Shown piece after piece: positions 1-6,527 of a stretch of DNA of 11,544 nucleotides. The notes beneath the pieces were generated by a model. That model searched no databases, was not told where the DNA came from, and saw only the letters and a list, made by a program, of their open reading frames with translations. Positions within the stretch are counted from its first letter, which is position 1. Each line of letters begins with the position of its first letter. The stretch comes from a virus (taxonomy: Monodnaviria; Loebvirae; Hofneiviricota; Faserviricetes; Tubulavirales; Inoviridae), in IMG/VR virus record IMGVR_UViG_2541047905_000001, one strand, 5' to 3'. A program made the position numbers and the translations under genes.

Positions 1-327
1 TCATTTTTTCCAGAGGCGGTCGAACTCCGCCTTCGCAAAATAAGCGGAAGCCTGGCGAAGGATATCGTTACTGCGGCGCAGTTCACGATTTTCACGTTCC
101 AGCTCTTTCAGACGCTGACGTTCAGCGGTGGTGAGCCCTCCATCACCGCCCCCGGTATCCCGCTCATGCTGGCGAACCCAGACACGCAGAGTCTCCGGCG
201 TACAGCCAATCTTTGGAGCAATGGAACAAATTGTCGCCCATTGTGAGTCATATTCGCCCTGACTTTCCAGAACCATACGGACTGCCCGTTGACGGACTTC
301 AGGGGAAAAACGAGTATTTTTAGTCAT
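1..327 (-). CDS. IS3-family transposase OrfA (IS629/IS1203-like), 108 aa, HTH DNA-binding subunit
   Basis: Translation [61 protein letters not shown]...[36 protein letters not shown] matches my memory of IS629 OrfA. A leucine-zipper-like C-terminus and an A-rich slippery run near the 3-prime end (AAAAAAT near positions 4-10, minus strand) fit a programmed frameshift into orfB. Confidence 0.9.
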
Positions 328-381
328 CCTGTTTACCTCTTTCTCAGGAAGTTTAGTCTCCAGGATTCCCGGGGCGGTTCA
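1..381 (-). mobile_element. Partial IS629-like (IS3 family) insertion sequence: left end only, element continues past the window start
   Basis: Seen: complete orfA at 1-327 (minus). The minus-strand reading of 328-381 begins TGAACCGCCCCGGGAATCCTGGAGACTAAACTTCC, which I recall as the IS629/IS1203 terminal inverted repeat (IS3-family elements start 5-prime TG). orfB would lie beyond position 1. Confidence 0.85.
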
Positions 382-666
382 ATCAGCGATCTCAAACTGG
401 CAATGGGGCTTAACGCATCCAAAGGCAAAAAAACGGCAATCGATAAAATTTATCCGCGACATTTTTTGGCGACAGCAAAGGTGCTGAGATTCCCGGAAGT
501 GCAGATGCATGAAATCCTGAGTGACTTTGCCAGAATGATTCCAGCAGCACTGGATAACGTGAAGACTTCATTACCGACAGATTTTCCGGAGAACGTGGTG
601 ACGGCAGTTGAAAGCAATGTGTTGAGGTTGCATGGACGGTTAAGCCGAGAATACGGTAGTAAGTGA
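382..666 (+). pseudogene. Possible 3-prime fragment of a gene truncated by the IS629 insertion (alternatively a small ORF starting at ATG 403); function unknown
   Basis: The frame is open from the IS boundary (381/382) to the stop at 664-666 and the translation (…KIYPRHFLATAKVLRFPEVQMHEILSDFARMIPAALDNVKTSLPTDFPENVVTAVESNVLRLHGRLSREYGSK) looks protein-like. No convincing RBS precedes the internal ATG at 403. I do not recognise the family. Confidence 0.3.
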
Positions 667-742
667 GATATGGGGTTTGGTCATTGTTAATGAGCATGAC
701 AATCATGACCGCCAACGACTGGATTCTTCCTTGGTTTATATT

Positions 743-775
743 GGTGCGCATAATGTACGACTCGTTATGTTGAAA
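743..775 (+). other. dif-like XerC/XerD recombination site with an expanded central region; candidate prophage (IMEX) junction
   Basis: Seen: GGTGCGCATAA-TGTACGACTCG-TTATGTTGAAA. From memory, E. coli dif is GGTGCGCATAA-TGTATA-TTATGTTAAAT. The XerC arm is identical (11/11), the first four central bases match, the XerD arm matches 9/11, and the central region is 11 bp instead of 6. Confidence 0.55.
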
Positions 776-809
776 AGGCCGCTGCGAAAATCGAATCCCG
801 CAGCGGCCT
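776..809. terminator. Strong GC-rich hairpin (11-bp perfect stem, 12-nt loop) between convergent genes; probable bidirectional terminator
   Basis: Seen: AGGCCGCTGCG (776-786) pairs perfectly with CGCAGCGGCCT (799-809). It lies downstream of the minus-strand gene ending at 843 and downstream of the plus-strand ORF ending at 666. The U-tracts are weak on both strands (CTTTA on plus, TTTCAACA on minus). Confidence 0.5.
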
Positions 810-842
810 CTTTAGCATAACGTCATTGTGCGAACCAATTAT

Positions 843-1109
843 TTAGTCCTGCTGTCGACCAGGGGCATCATAACCTTGTCTTTTTCGCCATGCTTTTTCA
901 CCTCTCTCCCATATAACCGTGTCATTAGTTAGCTTTCTAAATTTCGCTAATACTTTTTTATCAATGGATAAATTTCCATTAGCATTCAAATATACGAAAG
1001 TATCGCCAAATAACTCTTTTATTTTATATACAACAGTTTCTTGATATAGCCAGTTTGTGTTTTCCAGCTCTGATTTCATCCATTGTGCAACATCATCTAC
1101 AGTAGCCAT
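843..1109 (-). CDS. Hypothetical 88-aa protein; downstream partner of the nuclease-like gene in an AT-rich two-gene cassette
   Basis: ORF with an AGGA-containing RBS (AAAAGGACATAT then ATG) 10 bp after the stop of the upstream gene, which indicates co-transcription. Soluble, charged, basic C-terminus (KAWRKRQGYDAPGRQQD). Family not recognised. Confidence 0.6.
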   Translation of the reverse strand: MATVDDVAQWMKSELENTNWLYQETVVYKIKELFGDTFVYLNANGNLSIDKKVLAKFRKLTNDTVIWERGEKAWRKRQGYDAPGRQQD

Positions 1110-1119
1110 ATATGTCCTT

Positions 1120-1914
1120 TTATTTTGGTGAGATTATTACTTTTACCGAAATTGAATTTGTACAACGCTCAAGGTCATTCTCCACACCAATTGGATTGGC
1201 AATTCTACCTTCAGGGTCATATACAAAACACACTAAAGTTTCGCAATCAGGATGCGTTTGATAATGAGCTATATCAACAATTAATTGCTCACCAACTTCT
1301 TTTTGCTTGAGATTTTTTCTCGTTTTCTTTAACTCGATAATGATTTTTTCATTCTTTAACAAGAAGTCAACTCGTGTTGAAGATCCTGCATAGCTTGGCG
1401 TATATTCTTCTGGTCTGACATCCTCGAAATGAATCTTCAAAAGAGCATGAAATAAATCCTGAACGTCATATTCGTCATTTATTTCAATGGTTTGTCTATT
1501 ATCGTGTCGTTGCTGTAGCTGTCTTGCAACCTTATGAAATTGATGGCAAATTAGTTCAACAAGAGCTACGGGATCATTTTTTGTCTCTATGAAATTCCCG
1601 TCAATTCCATATTCTTCAATCTCAGCAATCATAGACGTAAGAAGAGAATGTGCTTCATCTAAACCACTACAAAATGCGTTATCGAAAACATAATCTGGTG
1701 TATCACCAACAAATGCCATTAAAGAGTATCGAATTGAGCCAAATTCTTTTTTGTGATCTGACTCTTCACCAAATATTTTTGATATGGCGGTCTTAGTGTT
1801 TCTTTGCCATAAGTTAAAACTTGGGTTATTTCCTGTACTCCTTCGTTCATTTTGTATTGCTGGGATTTGCTCCCGTTGTCTTTTTAATATCTCGATAGCT
1901 TTTTCTGGCTTCAT
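1120..1914 (-). CDS. Hypothetical 264-aa protein with an alpha-helical N-terminal region and a C-terminal PD-(D/E)xK-type nuclease-like motif; candidate defence or abortive-infection effector
   Basis: Strong RBS (GAGGAAAGATA then ATG at 1914). The translation contains the motif order typical of the restriction-endonuclease-like fold: ...IHFEDVRPEE...STRVDFLLKNEKIIIELKKT... (candidate D183, E194, K196) followed by Q210...Y218. The coding sequence is conspicuously AT-rich compared with the flanking IS and phage DNA. The fold assignment is inferred from the motif, not from a search. Confidence 0.6.
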   Translation of the reverse strand: MKPEKAIEILKRQREQIPAIQNERRSTGNNPSFNLWQRNTKTAISKIFGEESDHKKEFGSIRYSLMAFVGDTPDYVFDNAFCSGLDEAHSLLTSMIAEIEEYGIDGNFIETKNDPVALVELICHQFHKVARQLQQRHDNRQTIEINDEYDVQDLFHALLKIHFEDVRPEEYTPSYAGSSTRVDFLLKNEKIIIELKKTRKNLKQKEVGEQLIVDIAHYQTHPDCETLVCFVYDPEGRIANPIGVENDLERCTNSISVKVIISPK

Positions 1915-1980
1915 TATCTTTCCTCAAGACTAAAAAATAACCACTCTGAACTTCACCGCTGATATATGGAGCAAAATTGC

Positions 1981-2403
1981 TTACCAATAATAAGAGTTTC
2001 TTCTGTGCCACCAATAAAGCAGACCGTATCCGACGATAAGAATACCGAAAAACATTAACGACATTCCCCAGCCAGTTCCGTACCACGAAACCATATCATC
2101 GAAAACCAACCCACCCATTTCACGTACTCCGGCAGCTTCCTTAAGAATTGGTTTGAATACCGGAATCAGAAGGGCGATCGCCAGTGGAGCACCCCAGCGA
2201 ACAAGGCCTGTTTCCATTTTGATCCCGAAAAAGATCCCCGCCCCAACAACAAGCAGCCAGACTATCAGGCCAGGCGCAGTTTCCAGTGCTGTTTGCCATT
2301 CAACATCGAAAGTTTTCATTAGCCAGGCAACAACTGCCAGACAGAAAGCAAATACGCCGACGACAACCAGTTCAACGCCGCTTGTTTCGTTATTTCTACT
2401 CAT
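1981..2403 (-). CDS. Hypothetical multi-pass inner-membrane protein, 140 aa
   Basis: Translation shows several hydrophobic segments (VELVVVGVFAFCLAVVAWL, GLIVWLLVVGAGIFFGI, APLAIALLIPVF, MSLMFFGILIVGYGLLYWW). Same strand as, and upstream of, the nuclease-like gene with a 66-bp gap. RBS AAAAGGA precedes the ATG. Confidence 0.6.
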   Translation of the reverse strand: MSRNNETSGVELVVVGVFAFCLAVVAWLMKTFDVEWQTALETAPGLIVWLLVVGAGIFFGIKMETGLVRWGAPLAIALLIPVFKPILKEAAGVREMGGLVFDDMVSWYGTGWGMSLMFFGILIVGYGLLYWWHRRNSYYW

Positions 2404-2445
2404 CCTTTTGATCCTTTTTTACTGTTCAAAATTCGCACAATAAAG

Positions 2446-2474
2446 AACGTGCAGTGTTGGTAATACTGCACGTT
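2446..2474. repeat. 10-bp perfect inverted repeat with 9-nt loop between the regulator and membrane-protein genes; candidate terminator or operator
   Basis: Seen: AACGTGCAGT (2446-2455), loop GTTGGTAAT, ACTGCACGTT (2465-2474). On the minus strand it is followed by CTTTATTG. Confidence 0.4.
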
Positions 2475-2502
2475 TGTCTCATTCCTGAGACTGTTAATCC
2501 TT

Positions 2503-2949
2503 TTACTCTTCTCCAGACACCGCTTTTTTCATAAACATTTTAGTACTGTAAGTGTATGAACTTAATGCAGAAACCTGCCTTGCGAGTGCCAGAATATCTT
2601 GTTTTTCCAGTGTCCTGATGTTCCACACGATGAAATTATGTGCGTTAGTGGTTTCTTCATCAGTATATCCATCCGCAGAAGTGATTAGCTTCCGCTCGGT
2701 AGCTTCTTCTTTAACATCAAGAGCATAGCCATAAGCTAAGGTGTTTAAGTCTGCACCCGTAATTTTAGCTATCTGAATGATGTCACTGAATTTAGGTTCA
2801 GTTTTGCCGGACGCTATCCTGACCAGCGTACTCACGCTAATGCCAGTCTTCTCGGCCAGTTCTTCATAAGTCGAGTGTTCCAGAATTACCTTTTTGATAC
2901 GTTCTGCTCTCTGTTTGTCCGCCATAACTTCATGCTCATTGTTGCCCAT
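2503..2949 (-). CDS. XRE-family helix-turn-helix transcriptional regulator, 148 aa; probable prophage repressor transcribed divergently from gII
   Basis: HTH signature in the N-terminal third (STYEELAEKTGISVSTLVRIASGKTEPKFSDIIQIAKITGADLNTLAYG). Its position and divergent orientation relative to the replication gene resemble repressors of filamentous prophages such as RstR of CTXphi. GGAG lies 9 nt upstream of the ATG at 2949; an alternative start at Met9 is possible. Confidence 0.75.
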   Translation of the reverse strand: MGNNEHEVMADKQRAERIKKVILEHSTYEELAEKTGISVSTLVRIASGKTEPKFSDIIQIAKITGADLNTLAYGYALDVKEEATERKLITSADGYTDEETTNAHNFIVWNIRTLEKQDILALARQVSALSSYTYSTKMFMKKAVSGEE

Positions 2950-3120
2950 CTACTTGGCTCCATCTTAACAGTGGTTTTTCAATAGTTAGATTTGATGCTC
3001 ATTTCTGACAATTTAAACATTGCAAATGTATTGACTGTCAGATCTGAGCATATTACATTGTGACCATTCAATCTGCTCACAAATGACTATTGACACATAT
3101 TTTGATGGGTGTGACTACTT
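2950..3120. promoter_or_regulatory. Divergent intergenic control region between the repressor and gII; probably holds the promoters, operators and the plus-strand origin
   Basis: 171-bp AT-rich spacer between divergent start codons. It contains TTGACT (3031-3036), several TGAC-containing half-sites, and a motif resembling the Ff gene-II nick site at 2964-2989. Exact -10/-35 assignments are not secure. Confidence 0.4.
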
Positions 3121-3711
3121 ATGATCGACTGGTTTACCGGAATCCTGCCTTGCACACACCGACCGTTACCGGCTGGTAGTGTCGTCAGCGTCGATGCTGA
3201 CGGTGCAGTGGAGTGGGAAACAGTAAAACGGTTGACCGTTCGCGGTTCGCATGAGTCCACAATGAAAGTAAGGTCTGTTGGATCTGATGGTGAAGGTAGG
3301 GCAACACATCTCTACATTGACGGTAATCCATCAAAGTTTTTGCAAGGTCACTCTGTTATCGGTTCCGACGATTTGCAAGGGTTGGTGTTAACAGCTTACG
3401 CCAGAATATTGGCATTACTGCATATTCCTCATGATCTACCATCCTATCGGCAGGTCATGGAAGGGCAATTTAAGATCTCGCGCATCGATATCAATTACAT
3501 GTATTCATTGTCAACATTAGAAAATGTCCGCGCATGGTTATATGCCGCAGAATTTAAAGCTAAAACTCGCCACGGTCGCGCCTGTGGTAAAGGTGGCACT
3601 GTTTACTTAGGGAAAAACTCCCGTCGTTGGAGCCTGAAATTTTATTCAAAATATGATGAGCATACATCTGGCAAAAAAGGGCACCAGATGGCAGTAATGC
3701 CAGTCAGTTAA
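3121..3711 (+). pseudogene. Filamentous-phage replication initiation protein (Ff gII-like), N-terminal fragment, interrupted by IS4 after codon 191
   Basis: Translation starts MID... and contains KFLQGHSVIGSDDL and ISRIDINY, matching the M13 pII segments KVLQGHNVFGTTDL and ISRIDATF as I recall them. Native coding sequence ends at 3694; the last five codons (VMPVS, stop) are read from IS4 sequence. Confidence 0.9.
3682..3694. repeat. Left copy of the 13-bp target-site duplication (CACCAGATGGCAG) made by IS4 insertion
   Basis: Identical 13-mer abuts both ends of the IS at 3682-3694 and 5121-5133. Confidence 0.85.
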
Positions 3712-5120
3712 GCAACTGACTGGCTCTTTTTCGGGGCTGTGGGGTATTTCCAGGGCCTCTCCTTTACCACTCTCGGGAAGGCCCTTTCCCTTCTTGTCGG
3801 TAATTTCACAAGTTGTCCCATACTTGCAAGATCGCGCATCAGCTCCGGTATACGTCCCGGTGAAGCGCCCTGCAATGTCATCAGCATTCTCATCACCATT
3901 CCGCATGATTCTGAGAAACTCAGTTGATTCGGCCAGTAACCTTTCAGATGTTCCGCCATTTTAATCATCTGATATCTCACCAGATTATAAGCCAGTAAGA
4001 CACCCCACAGCTCTTGCTCCACAAGCTCCGGCTTTTTACTTCTCAGCGTCAGCCTGCTCCGTTGCATCGTCTGTTTTATCTCCCTGTATCCCAGTTCGAT
4101 TTCCCAGCGATGACTGTACAGATCCCCCATTTCTCCTCCGGGGAAGCGCATGGCGTCCGTCATCGACGTCAGCAGATGGCAGACTTTTCCTTTGCGCGTC
4201 ACGGTCAGCAGGCGGGCAGTCACTTCATTTCCCAGTCCCGGCCACTTTTTTCGTGCCTGCGGGCTGGTTTTCAGCTTCACCAGATGATCGCCTTTACCCA
4301 GTTTTCTGATCTCTTCATATTGCGCTCCCTTTCTGAGAGGTATCATCCAGTGGCGGTGTTCTCCCGCCAGGCTCCAGGCATTTAACAGTCCCAGTGAGTA
4401 ATAACCTTTATCCATTAACGTCAGAGTGTTATCGCCGGTTTGTTCTATAAGTTGCTCAGCAAGCTCATTTTCGCTGTTCTTCATCGTGCCGAAGGCTGCA
4501 GCCGTCAGCAGATGGCTGGTCAGTTCCATCTGGCAGACCATTTTGACCTGCGGGTAGAGCGCCGGGTTCCCGGCATGTGTCTGGCGGGGGAAGGCTGCAT
4601 CGTTCTCTGGTGTATCCGGTGTGCGCCAGAACACACCATCGATGGCCAGCAGGGTCAGGCCGCACCAGTGCGGATGCGGCGTGGCGTTATGCCAGAGCTG
4701 CGCTGTTTTCGTGAACACGCGGCGGACAGCCTCACTTCCCAGGCGCTGGCGGGCCTGAATAACGGCACTGGGGGCAACGAAGGGGCGATTGCCCGGCAGC
4801 ATGATGTCCAGGCGATTCACAATCTGGTGAAGAGGTTCTTTACGCTCAAGCGCCATGCCAACAATACACCAGACCATCATTTCGAGGGGAAGACGGCGCT
4901 TGCGTAGCGTTACAGTACCTGATTCGGCAAGGCAACGAGAGATGAGTTCGGGGTCGAGGTAATCCCCCAGAGAAGTCAGTGGGTTACGCAGAGAATCGTA
5001 ACGGGATACCAGATCAAGAGCCTGTCCAATGTGCATAAAAAAATCCGGAAACAAGTGAGCGTTTCCGGATTCTTACACAGCCACTGGATCGGTCAACTGA
5101 TCCTTAACTGATCGGCATTA
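3695..5120 (-). mobile_element. Complete IS4 insertion sequence (1426 bp) inserted in gII
   Basis: 18-bp terminal inverted repeats TAATGCCAGTCAGTTAAG (3695-3712) and the reverse complement of 5103-5120 (TAATGCCGATCAGTTAAG), 16/18 identical. Single transposase ORF. The 1426-bp length matches my memory of IS4. Flanked by the 13-bp direct repeat. Confidence 0.95.
3708..5036 (-). CDS. insG: IS4 transposase, 442 aa, DDE family
   Basis: Translation from [70 protein letters not shown]... to ...[13 protein letters not shown] matches my memory of E. coli IS4 InsG. The ORF track begins six codons earlier (MFPDFF); I take Met7 as the true start. Confidence 0.95.
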
Positions 5121-5133
5121 CACCAGATGGCAG
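5121..5133. repeat. Right copy of the 13-bp IS4 target-site duplication
   Basis: CACCAGATGGCAG, identical to 3682-3694. Confidence 0.85.
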
Positions 5134-5297
5134 ACGAATTCGTTAAAGCTGGTTTACTGGACTGGTCAAAAGATAAATTACGCATTGAATTAACATTAAG
5201 AACAACTGAATTAATTGATTTGAATCTTACGCTTGGTAATAGCTGGAATATTGAGACGCCCAATAAATTATTCTCTGACTATGTAGGGAGAATAGAA

Positions 5298-5612
5298 ATG
5301 AATCAAAACACTATATTAACTGATGAAAAAATAATTAATCTCCCAAGAAAAATACAGTCTACATATTTATTGTGGAAGCAGGGCGCGAACATGAAAGAGA
5401 TGTTACCGAAACCTACATTCTACCGACACCGTAAAGAATTACTTTCTTTCGGAATAGATATTAACTTTTATTGTGAGTCACCGGATTCTAATAACGTTGT
5501 TCCGTTGGTTCGTACTCTTGAAGCCAAACCAGCCAAAATTCCATCATGGGTTTATGAGAAAGGTTTAATTTTCGATTATAACCGTATTTCACATGCCAGT
5601 AACTGGCATTAA
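5298..5612 (+). CDS. Possible gX-like protein (in-frame internal restart within the gII C-terminal region), 104 aa
   Basis: In-frame ATG at 5298 preceded by a strong Shine-Dalgarno sequence (GGGAGAA at 5286-5292). In Ff phages pX is the C-terminal roughly 111 aa of pII made from an internal start. Inferred by analogy. Confidence 0.4.
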   Translation: MNQNTILTDEKIINLPRKIQSTYLLWKQGANMKEMLPKPTFYRHRKELLSFGIDINFYCESPDSNNVVPLVRTLEAKPAKIPSWVYEKGLIFDYNRISHASNWH

Positions 5613-5623
5613 AGGAGAGTGAT

Positions 5624-5941
5624 ATGTCTAATTATGGTCTTTTTGTAAAAGGTAAAATGCTTGGTGCTCGCCAGCGTAATAAGGTCAATGGTCAGGGATA
5701 CTATAATGAAATTGGTGTTGGCTTAGAGATTCCTGATGGTTTTGGCGGCACTAAGCAAGACCAGATTATTATTCGTGTATCTCAGGCTCTTGTTAATGCC
5801 GGTGTAATGAATCAGGCAAATAATTTTATCGGTAAGTTAGTCCAGATACCTGTATATGTTCGCGTCTGGTCAATGGAGGGGAGGGAAGGAGTAACTTATA
5901 ACATTTCATCAGATGGCGGCATTACTGAAATAAAAGGCTGA
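5624..5941 (+). CDS. Probable ssDNA-binding protein (gV-like), 105 aa
   Basis: Small soluble ORF immediately after gII with an AGGAG RBS, at the position gV occupies in Ff-type genomes. Assigned by synteny and size, not by recognisable sequence similarity. Confidence 0.5.
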   Translation: MSNYGLFVKGKMLGARQRNKVNGQGYYNEIGVGLEIPDGFGGTKQDQIIIRVSQALVNAGVMNQANNFIGKLVQIPVYVRVWSMEGREGVTYNISSDGGITEIKG

Positions 5942-5943
5942 TT

Positions 5944-6195
5944 ATGGATACATCAGGTTTCGATATTCAGTTTGATAATCATATTCCTGAAAATGGTTAC
6001 CGTATTGAAGGTTATTTATGTAATGCGAACAATGCAAAAGAATGTCAGGCAATAATGGTACGTTCTGAACCATTTCATCAAATTGATTATTCTGCAATGG
6101 GAAATTACTGGACATTAGGTTTTGGCTCTGTCCTGCTGCTCTGGCTTTTTTCTGTAGGTGTGGGACAGGTAATAAAGATGGTTCGTACTGCTTGA
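5944..6195 (+). CDS. Small protein with a C-terminal transmembrane helix, 83 aa; possible minor virion protein at the gVII/gIX position
   Basis: Start overlaps the gV stop (TGATTATG). C-terminal hydrophobic segment YWTLGFGSVLLLWLFSVGVGQVI followed by KMVRTA. Assigned by position only. Confidence 0.45.
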   Translation: MDTSGFDIQFDNHIPENGYRIEGYLCNANNAKECQAIMVRSEPFHQIDYSAMGNYWTLGFGSVLLLWLFSVGVGQVIKMVRTA

Positions 6196-6229
6196 ATGCG
6201 AACCTTTAAAATGTAATGGAGATAGAGTT

Positions 6230-6463
6230 ATGTTTAAAAAAATCGTTAGTTTTCTGGCTGTACCTGCATTAATGGCTGTTTCTGGCGCGACTTTCGCTGC
6301 AGAAGGAGCGGCATCAAGTGGTGTTGATTTATCGCCGCTGACGAACAGCATTGATTTCAGTACAGTTCTGGTTGCGATTATGGCCGTTGCTGCTTCACTG
6401 GTAACACTTTATGCCGGTGTCGCTGGCGTTCGCTGGGTATTGCGTACCGTTAAATCCGCATAA
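6230..6463 (+). CDS. Major coat protein precursor (gVIII-like), 77 aa
   Basis: Classic architecture: signal peptide MFKKIVSFLAVPALMAVSGATFA, acidic mature N-terminus AEGAASSGVD, a hydrophobic helix, and a basic C-terminus RWVLRTVKSA. GGAG RBS 8 nt upstream. Confidence 0.8.
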   Translation: MFKKIVSFLAVPALMAVSGATFAAEGAASSGVDLSPLTNSIDFSTVLVAIMAVAASLVTLYAGVAGVRWVLRTVKSA

Positions 6464-6476
6464 ATTCATTATTCAT

Positions 6477-6500
6477 GGGCGATGCAATATCGCCCGTTTT
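6477..6500 (+). terminator. Rho-independent terminator after the major coat gene
   Basis: Hairpin GGGCGAT (6477-6483), loop GCAAT, ATCGCCC (6489-6495), followed by GTTTT. Ff phages have a strong terminator just after gVIII. Confidence 0.6.
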
Positions 6501-6527
6501 ACTTGAGGTTATTATGGAGATTGAATT

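Follow-up and report, generated by a model that had tools for sequence, protein, structure and literature searches.

The probable left junction of a CUS-1/Ypfphi-type filamentous prophage at Escherichia coli dif and its putative CTX-type attachment site

The window, that is, the whole 11,544-nt stretch of DNA that was analysed, opens with the end of an IS3-family insertion sequence on the − strand (1..381, with orfA at 1–327), recognized by the Pfam domain HTH_Tnp_1 and by the annotation of an IS3 family transposase in strain VR50. This element truncates the host gene hipA, of which a 3' fragment with the last ~94 codons and the stop codon is left on the + strand (382..666); homology to intact hipA begins at 382, and identity to hipA of strain H6 is 100% through the XerC arm of dif. 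In E. coli, hipA is the gene adjoining dif. The IS3-family end is outside the prophage and marks the left context only. On the far side of the same element, VR50 carries a truncated autotransporter gene and, judging from its sequence, hipB and most of hipA appear to be deleted in this strain.

To the right of hipA, a dif-like 33-mer (743–775), a hairpin and an inverted dif-like site, attP2, precede the phage genes. Beside attP2 there is a variable cargo segment on the − strand (843..2403; Pfam and PADLOC) that encodes a DUF6953 protein (843–1109), a 264-aa protein with a DpnII/MboI-type nuclease domain (1120–1914), and a 140-aa protein with no assigned function (1981–2403). The gene of a Cro/CI-type HTH repressor follows on the same strand (2503..2949; Pfam HTH_3), in a position that matches that of rstR in CTXphi (PMC4266046), and then, on the + strand, a replication initiator gene of the gII/X family (3121..5612; Pfam Phage_CRI and G2P_X_C), which is split by an IS4 element of 1426 bp with terminal repeats that begin with TAATGCC (3695–5120). 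The limits of IS4 were set by the Pfam domains Nterm_IS4 and DDE_Tnp_1 and by the breakpoints relative to the intact gene, and a 13-bp target duplication, CACCAGATGGCAG, borders it at 3682–3694 and 5121–5133. The inovirus core extends over 5624..10813 on the + strand, according to Pfam and to the RefSeq annotation of identical genes, and consists of an ssDNA-binding protein (5624–5941), small membrane and coat proteins (5944–6195 and 6230–6463), a pIII-like protein (6528–8240), a DUF2523 protein (8253–8540), Zot/pI (8544–9569), and the secretin pIV (9569–10813). Two small ORFs on the + strand (10902–11150 and 11296–11544), placed as YPO2280a/YPO2281 (PMC4266046), lie near the right phage end. 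The non-coding stretch between them (window 11143–11265) contains the hairpin GAATTTCGTACGCACGAAATTTC and a 26-nt stem-loop at ~11220–11263, with a fold z of −3.3, and these hairpins may represent a packaging signal or a replication origin.

The Pfam matches of the phage comprise Phage_CRI/G2P_X_C, G5P, coat B, DUF2523, Zot, and Secretin; Pfam detected neither an integrase nor a recombinase domain in any phage ORF of at least 77 aa, and the sole transposase belongs to IS4. The phage unit measures 9.5 kb, or 10.9 kb here with IS4, and it is present as a single copy in the genomes that are identical to the window. Because IS4 splits the replication gene, the prophage should be defective and unable to replicate. 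Moreover, by the logic of CTX, in which phage production needs a tandem array, a single copy with an interrupted replication gene is most likely a fixed, non-productive remnant. The IS4 insertion in the replication gene was found in none of the 5426 complete RefSeq E. coli genomes and is present in two other NCBI assemblies, and the complete cargo set occurs in only 24 of those 5426 genomes.

The 33-mer at 743–775 of the + strand, GGTGCGCATAATGTACGACTCGTTATGTTGAAA, can be parsed as GGTGCGCATAA-TGTACGACTCG-TTATGTTGAAA. When compared with dif as taken from the sequence of strain H6, just downstream of hipA (GGTGCGCATAATGTATATTATGTTAAAT), its XerC-binding arm GGTGCGCATAA (743..753, +) matches at 11/11 positions and its XerD-type arm TTATGTTGAAA (765..775, +) matches the dif arm TTATGTTAAAT at 9/11, while the central region TGTACGACTCG (754..764, +) shares its first 4 nt, TGTA, with the start of the dif centre TGTATA and measures 11 nt, against a spacer of 6 nt in dif. 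The first-pass annotation, made from the letters of this DNA, had described precisely such a dif-like site, with a perfect XerC arm, a XerD arm matching 9/11, and five extra central bases, and the letters of the window confirm it. A parse with a 6-bp centre was also considered and rejected, since it turns the XerD arm into ACTCGTTATGT, a poor match. In a scan for two arms separated by 11 nt that allowed up to 3 mismatches, 743–775 was the sole match in the window and 200 dinucleotide-preserving shuffles gave none, and a canonical dif is absent within the 11,544 nt, even when 3 mismatches or a variable spacer are allowed.

The canonical dif is found beyond the right edge. A look-up with the IS4-truncated Rep ORF located two assemblies, GCA_045573325.1 and GCA_000460555.1, that contain the entire window with 11544/11544 identity, and in both of them phage sequence runs for 142 nt past the right edge and is followed, 143 nt past the edge, by GGTGCGCATAATGTATATTATGTTAAAT at the window-equivalent positions 11687–11714, with phage DNA before it and catatctgagtgatgcg after it. 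VR50, which is 100% identical over window 1–3694, and MINF_1D have the same right end with dif. In strain H6, where the locus is empty, a plain dif stands between the same two flanks, ttggtttatatt on the left and catgtctgagtgatgcg on the right, the latter differing by one base from catatctgagtgatgcg of the lysogens. The presence of dif at the right end, together with an empty locus that has the same flanks, indicates precise insertion at dif. Thus, a canonical dif at the far end of the prophage and an empty dif locus in a related strain, the two things that the first-pass annotation had proposed to look for, are both there, and the intact dif lies at the other end of the element rather than elsewhere in the chromosome. 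The proposal of an attL-type junction of a Xer-integrated filamentous prophage gains support from the right-end dif, the empty locus, and the integrase-less inovirus genes, and the 33-mer very probably represents the attL formed by a filamentous prophage of the CUS-1/Ypfphi type, sited exactly at E. coli dif by hipA. The working dif of the chromosome is the one located ~10.9 kb to the right of the 33-mer. Among the 5426 complete E. coli genomes, 176 carry the full-length attP block, and 423 match a 221-nt probe of the hipA junction along 80% or more of its length; the latter number includes a transposon (IS1202-family) variant of the junction.

The strong hairpin that had been noted as abutting the site is real, with stems at 777–786 and 799–808 and a 12-nt loop. 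In the DNA fold, the tip hairpin (776..809, +) is formed by the pair A776/T809 and the stems GGCCGCTGCG/CGCAGCGGCC, and directly after it comes a second, inverted dif-like site that the earlier annotation had overlooked. This site, attP2 (810..836, −), reads GGTTCGCACAA TGACG TTATGCTAAAG, with arms that match at 9/11 and 9/11 and a 5-nt centre, and is separated from attP1, the phage site represented by the 33-mer, by 34 nt in the opposite orientation. As single-stranded DNA, the segment 740–839 is predicted to form one 100-nt hairpin of −31.2 kcal/mol (z = −6.7; equalled by 0/200 shuffles). The whole predicted attP(+) fold (740..839, +) consists of a XerC-arm duplex, an internal loop of 7 versus 1 nt, a XerD-arm duplex, and the G+C-rich tip hairpin, so that the XerC arms pair together and the XerD arms do likewise, two base pairs flank each arm within the centre, and seven bases of the long centre, the bulged middle 7 nt of attP1, lie opposite one base of the short centre. 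The minus strand reaches −29.1 kcal/mol as compared with −31.2 for the plus strand, and the folding energy does not discriminate the active strand. Rfam reported no family at threshold anywhere in the window. The modelled fold supports the view that the hairpin caps the attP1/attP2 inverted repeat and that both together form a CTX-type single-strand attachment site, and 740–839 should be annotated as one composite attachment site. Within the XerD-arm duplex, window 772 stands opposite 813 (XerD-arm position 8) as a G–T wobble in 11/11 variants, which might help to keep XerD inactive.

The arrangement of attP1, hairpin, and attP2 is shared by phages from Y. pestis, Brenneria, and Photorhabdus, by a second E. 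coli inovirus with unrelated cargo, and by IMG/VR contigs. In the 18 distinct sequences that have this layout, attP1 centres measure 10–11 nt and attP2 centres 5–6 nt, and the TGT at the start of the centre, which matches dif TGTATA, is invariant in 12 attP variants. When the 37-pair structure was laid over 11 variants, 94.6% of the cells were paired, compared with 30–53% when the partner was slid, and six pairs were altered on both sides; none of 500 shuffles reached the observed values. An independent consensus obtained with RNAalifold predicted 35 of the 37 pairs, and the Brenneria phage carries compensatory changes in 3 tip-stem pairs. The arm covariation could partly reflect that each site follows the host dif for the sake of protein binding, and not mutual pairing; attP1 and attP2 must both resemble the host dif and are, for that reason alone, complementary.

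The second E. coli inovirus (positions 14872–24230 of a locus, L005, from the chromosome of E. coli RIVM_C037166) has a replication protein of another kind (in its annotation, a replication initiation factor domain protein) and shares the attP architecture, with the site AGTGCGCATAA TGTGACACGCG TTATGTTGAAA and an inverted site with the centre TGGCG. It lies in tandem to the right of a transporter IS, which makes an array of dif-targeting elements by hipA. Two further sequences of the enterobacterial phage studied here (L009 and L011) are labelled as metagenome-assembled genomes of Aerococcus and Candidatus Nanosynbacter; these labels are probably binning errors, and L011 even includes the E. 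coli hipA-side flank.

Tandem copies reveal both the identity of the 33-mer and the point of exchange. In MINF_1D and in a Klebsiella plasmid, the phage is arranged in tandem, and the junction between copies is the identical 33-mer, preceded by phage DNA. Since the same 33-mer joins tandem copies with phage DNA on both sides, it is the attP1 of the phage and not a decayed host dif. The junction at dif described earlier stands, with the refinement that the 33-mer is one half of a composite attachment site to which the hairpin also belongs. The plasmid, NZ_CP132684.1 of Klebsiella pneumoniae (IncFIB/IncHI1B), holds two tandem copies at 2497–21532 of the locus L053 with the same cargo proteins, inserted in a plasmid dif-like site, AGTGCGCTTAA TGTACG TTATGTTAAAT. 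Its left junction consists of AGTGCGCTTAA, TGTACGACTCG, and TTATGTTGAAA, its middle junction of GGTGCGCATAA followed by the same phage centre and XerD arm, and its right junction of GGTGCGCATAA, the plasmid centre TGTACG, and TTATGTTAAAT. The left junction in Y. pestis has GGTGCACATAA as its XerC arm, as against GGTGCGCATAA between copies. In the left junction, the XerC arm therefore comes from the target, and in the regenerated site from the phage, which places the exchange at the XerC side. The compared sequences put the crossover between position 8 of the XerC arm and the start of the shared centre, where XerC cleaves, and in each of three different targets the chimeric junctions switch exactly at the arm/centre boundary. 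Host and phage arms are both GGTGCGCATAA in E. coli, where the origin of the XerC arm can consequently not be read from the junction itself; on the model of the targets with differing arms, the Klebsiella plasmid and Y. pestis, the XerC arm of attL in the prophage would be contributed by the host. Moreover, as two tandem copies sit in the dif-like site of NZ_CP132684.1, the E. coli/Yersinia phage also enters plasmid multimer-resolution sites and can travel on plasmids. The full-length attP block occurs in 14 PLSDB plasmids.

From the layout, the predicted fold, and the chimeric junctions, we infer a mechanism with a single-strand substrate, catalysis by XerC only, resolution by replication, and irreversibility; tandem arrays in relatives lend indirect support to the last three. 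The packaged strand of Ff and CTX phages is the strand that bears the virion and replication genes, and by extension the + strand of the window, on which all virion and replication genes lie, is taken as the packaged strand here. In this (+) single strand, attP1 and attP2 would anneal into the 100-nt hairpin, the stem of which would offer XerC and XerD arms at near-normal spacing, while the excess bases in the attP1 centre would loop out. Host XerC would swap one strand pair between the hairpin and dif at the XerC-arm/centre boundary, an exchange that could be stabilised by the common TGT(A), and replication would turn the pseudo-Holliday junction into an integrated prophage. The left product would then be the host XerC arm joined to the phage centre and XerD arm, followed by the hairpin and attP2, and the right product would be a regenerated canonical dif. 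Once in duplex form, the 11-bp-spaced site would no longer be a Xer substrate and integration is expected to be irreversible. According to a report on Ypfphi, superinfecting phage prefers the imperfect site between resident copies for its insertion (PMC4266046), and this counts against the mechanism, as the classical CTX model does not predict such an insertion.

That report would be more easily explained by an imperfect site that is active as a duplex, as in integration of the VGJphi type, in which the 33-mer alone, in the duplex replicative form, would recombine reversibly with dif via XerC, both junctions would stay Xer substrates, and attP2 and the hairpin would be irrelevant to integration. 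As in VGJphi, TGTA at the XerC side is all that the centre has in common with dif, and the crossover also maps to the XerC side. VGJ sites, however, are single and have a 7-bp centre (PMC3089051), whereas all variants of the present site have a centre of 10–11 bp, and an inverted partner is found at a constant distance from each of them. In addition, the attP1 of CTXphi, with its 12-bp centre, is reported to be unsuitable for Xer recombination as a duplex, and the literature places CUS-1 and Ypf under the CTX type (PMC4246890), so this type of integration has little chance of being the right one here.

The hairpin and the inverted site might instead constitute just a bidirectional terminator, with an incidental likeness to dif and with integration achieved, for example, by homologous recombination through the 15-nt identity with dif. 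The G+C-rich 10-bp stem, with T-rich sequence after it on both strands, is indeed placed directly downstream of the minus-strand cargo, and the tip hairpin may also serve as a terminator for these genes, although the consensus terminator scan did not report the hairpin at 777–808, its loop limit of 8 nt excluding a 12-nt loop. A role in attachment is compatible with a role in termination, so that a terminator would not displace the attachment site. Moreover, attP2 matches both dif arms at 9/11, in the correct order and spacing, and is kept across genera, while an incidental likeness accords poorly with chimeric junctions that, in three different targets, fall precisely on the arm/centre boundary. 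An exclusive terminator role thus appears still less probable than VGJphi-type integration.

Integration of the TLC/GGI type, in which a defective XerD arm goes with initial catalysis by XerD, aided by a phage activator or FtsK, could be suspected from the two positions at which the XerD arm departs from dif. Nevertheless, an arm that matches at 9/11 is not degenerate, the centre is dif-like for 4 nt only, the exchange falls on the XerC side in the junction chimeras, and no extra recombination-factor domain was found among the scanned ORFs, all of which makes this option highly improbable. Finally, that the 33-mer is a host dif damaged by a 5-bp insertion and two substitutions, or a chance match, as its resemblance to dif alone could suggest, is already refuted by the tandem junctions and the right-end dif, since the identical 33-mer, with phage DNA to either side, joins the tandem copies on the Klebsiella plasmid and in Y. 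pestis, an intact true dif stands at the other end, and no shuffle gave such a match.

The cargo segment next to the composite attachment site is hypervariable from ~841 to ~1980, between attP2 and the conserved 140-aa ORF. Related phages lose their homology ~5 bp past the XerC arm of attP2 and regain it at ~1976–1981 or further on, and in the relatives (L007, L010, L013, L018, L019, L021, L024, L027, L030, L034, L036, L039, L045, and L048) this slot holds at least a dozen unrelated minus-strand gene sets, some of them with defence-like domains. Examples are a CAP12/Pycsar-type TIR protein (L019/L036), a Fic/DOC protein (L045), and predicted membrane proteins, and several of the cargo sets match candidate anti-phage defence models. 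In the window, the N-terminus of the 264-aa protein matches the defence-candidate model PDC-S35 and its C-terminal DpnII/MboI-type nuclease domain also matches Aga_Helical-REase models; on these matches, the DUF6953/264-aa cargo (843–1914) may be a single-gene anti-phage system. A literature search on inovirus defence-cargo hotspots at dif returned nothing relevant.

A part of the attachment region is also found in transposons. Elements of the IS1202 family target the XerC arms of dif/pdif by means of a DDE transposase and with a 5-bp target duplication (PMC10132070; bioRxiv 10.1101/2022.12.17.520857). Like the phage, IS1202-family elements (ISKpn21-like transporter IS) are located beside XerC arms, and they contain a 76-nt segment homologous to window 766–841, which takes in the hairpin and attP2 along with part of the XerD arm; unlike the phage, they are transposons with their own DDE transposase and 5-bp target duplication, and no such element occurs in the window. 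Two such IS1202/ISNCY-family transporter IS, at 3946–6786 of a locus (L004) on the APEC plasmid NZ_CP126929.1 and at 12105–14871 of the RIVM_C037166 locus that harbours the second inovirus, lie, with a 5-bp duplication, immediately adjacent to the XerC arm of a dif-like site and carry the copy of 766–841 between one end and a passenger gene (STM4504 family or SIR2). The truncated 766–841 block was found in ~475 E. coli plasmid places and in 440 PLSDB plasmids, mostly conjugative, and IS1202-family copies with the block are also present at the E. coli chromosomal dif. The phage-like hairpin is not mentioned in the two publications on dif-targeting IS1202 elements cited above. It is conceivable, albeit doubtful, that the point 5 bp past the XerC arm of attP2 (~841) is a cargo-exchange point common to two kinds of dif-targeting elements. 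If the block does move or capture cargo, dif phages and dif-targeting transposons would trade defence genes via a common Xer-related module. The defence-like slot, the tandem phage on the Klebsiella plasmid, and the attP fragment in IS1202-family elements are worth a separate look. The window itself has little importance beyond correct annotation, since the junction, the composite site, and the CTX-type assignment are already described in the literature, but it offers a textbook-quality natural case of CTX-type Xer hijacking in E. coli, with junctions, empty site, and chimeric junctions available to compare.

The closest known relatives are Ypfphi and CUS-1. Over 350 aa, the replication protein shows 100% identity with its counterpart in the Y. 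pestis NCTC5923 prophage, the Y. pestis prophage has the same attP block without any difference, and window 2423–3200 is 99.5% identical to the Y. pestis locus; in the GenBank phage collection, a search with the phage core retrieved nothing similar. For Ypfphi, inverted XerC/XerD sites have been described along with an intact dif at the 3' end, tandem copies, and an imperfect dif at the junction between copies (PMC4266046), and the attP regions of CUS-1 and Ypfphi show features for direct single-strand integration, both phages being listed as CTX-type (PMC3089051, PMC4246890). The prophage shares with them the gene order (repressor, replication gene, ssb, coat, pIII-like, Zot, secretin, and two small ORFs by attR), the insertion at dif, which restores an intact dif at the 3' end, and, in relatives, the tandem arrays; the likeness to CUS-1 (E. 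coli O18:K1:H7) refers to its published layout. It differs in the attL-proximal cargo, here DUF6953 and a nuclease-domain protein, and in being a single, IS4-disrupted copy; the attL-proximal segment also differs between Ypfphi and CUS-1 (PMC4266046).

In CTXphi, attP1 reads AGTGCGTATTA TGTGGCGCGGCA TTATGTTGAGG, with a 12-nt centre, and attP2 reads AATGCGTATTA TACGCCA TTATGTTACGG, with a 7-nt centre; the inverted sites fold in the (+) strand, XerC exchanges one strand pair, replication completes integration, and the duplex sites are not substrates (PMC3089051, PMC4246890). The attachment region of the present phage resembles CTXphi attP(+) in the inverted arrangement of a long-centre attP1 (11 nt, against 12) and a short-centre attP2 (5 nt, against 7), in the location of the sites between the last phage gene and the repressor gene, and in the outcome, as an XerC-side exchange turns the long-centre site into the left junction and restores a functional dif on the right. 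Furthermore, the G at position 8 of the attP1 XerD arm (TTATGTTGAGG in CTXphi, TTATGTTGAAA here) opposes a T of attP2 in both systems, the CTXphi wobble being that of TTATGTTGAGG against TTATGTTACGG as quoted in PMC3089051. In contrast, the spacer is here a single 34-nt hairpin instead of ~90 nt that form a fork, the arms match the enterobacterial dif, the cargo is another one without cholera toxin, and the mechanism is one that we infer.

VGJphi is likewise a filamentous phage that inserts at dif with centre homology on the XerC side only, but it uses one 29-bp double-stranded site with a 7-bp centre, reversibly, whereas two inverted sites, the long one with a centre of 10–11 nt, are found here in place of a single duplex attP. 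The dif-like centre and degenerate XerD arm of the TLC/GGI type are also lacking, as the arm matches at 9/11 and the crossover is on the XerC side. A site at dif, inovirus genes with no integrase among them, two inverted sites, a predicted fold, and exchange on the XerC side are the features of the CTX type, and core genes and attP nearly identical to those of the Y. pestis prophage are those of the CUS-1/Ypfphi lineage. Thus, sequence comparison supports the assignment of the element to the CUS-1/Ypfphi lineage and to the CTX type.
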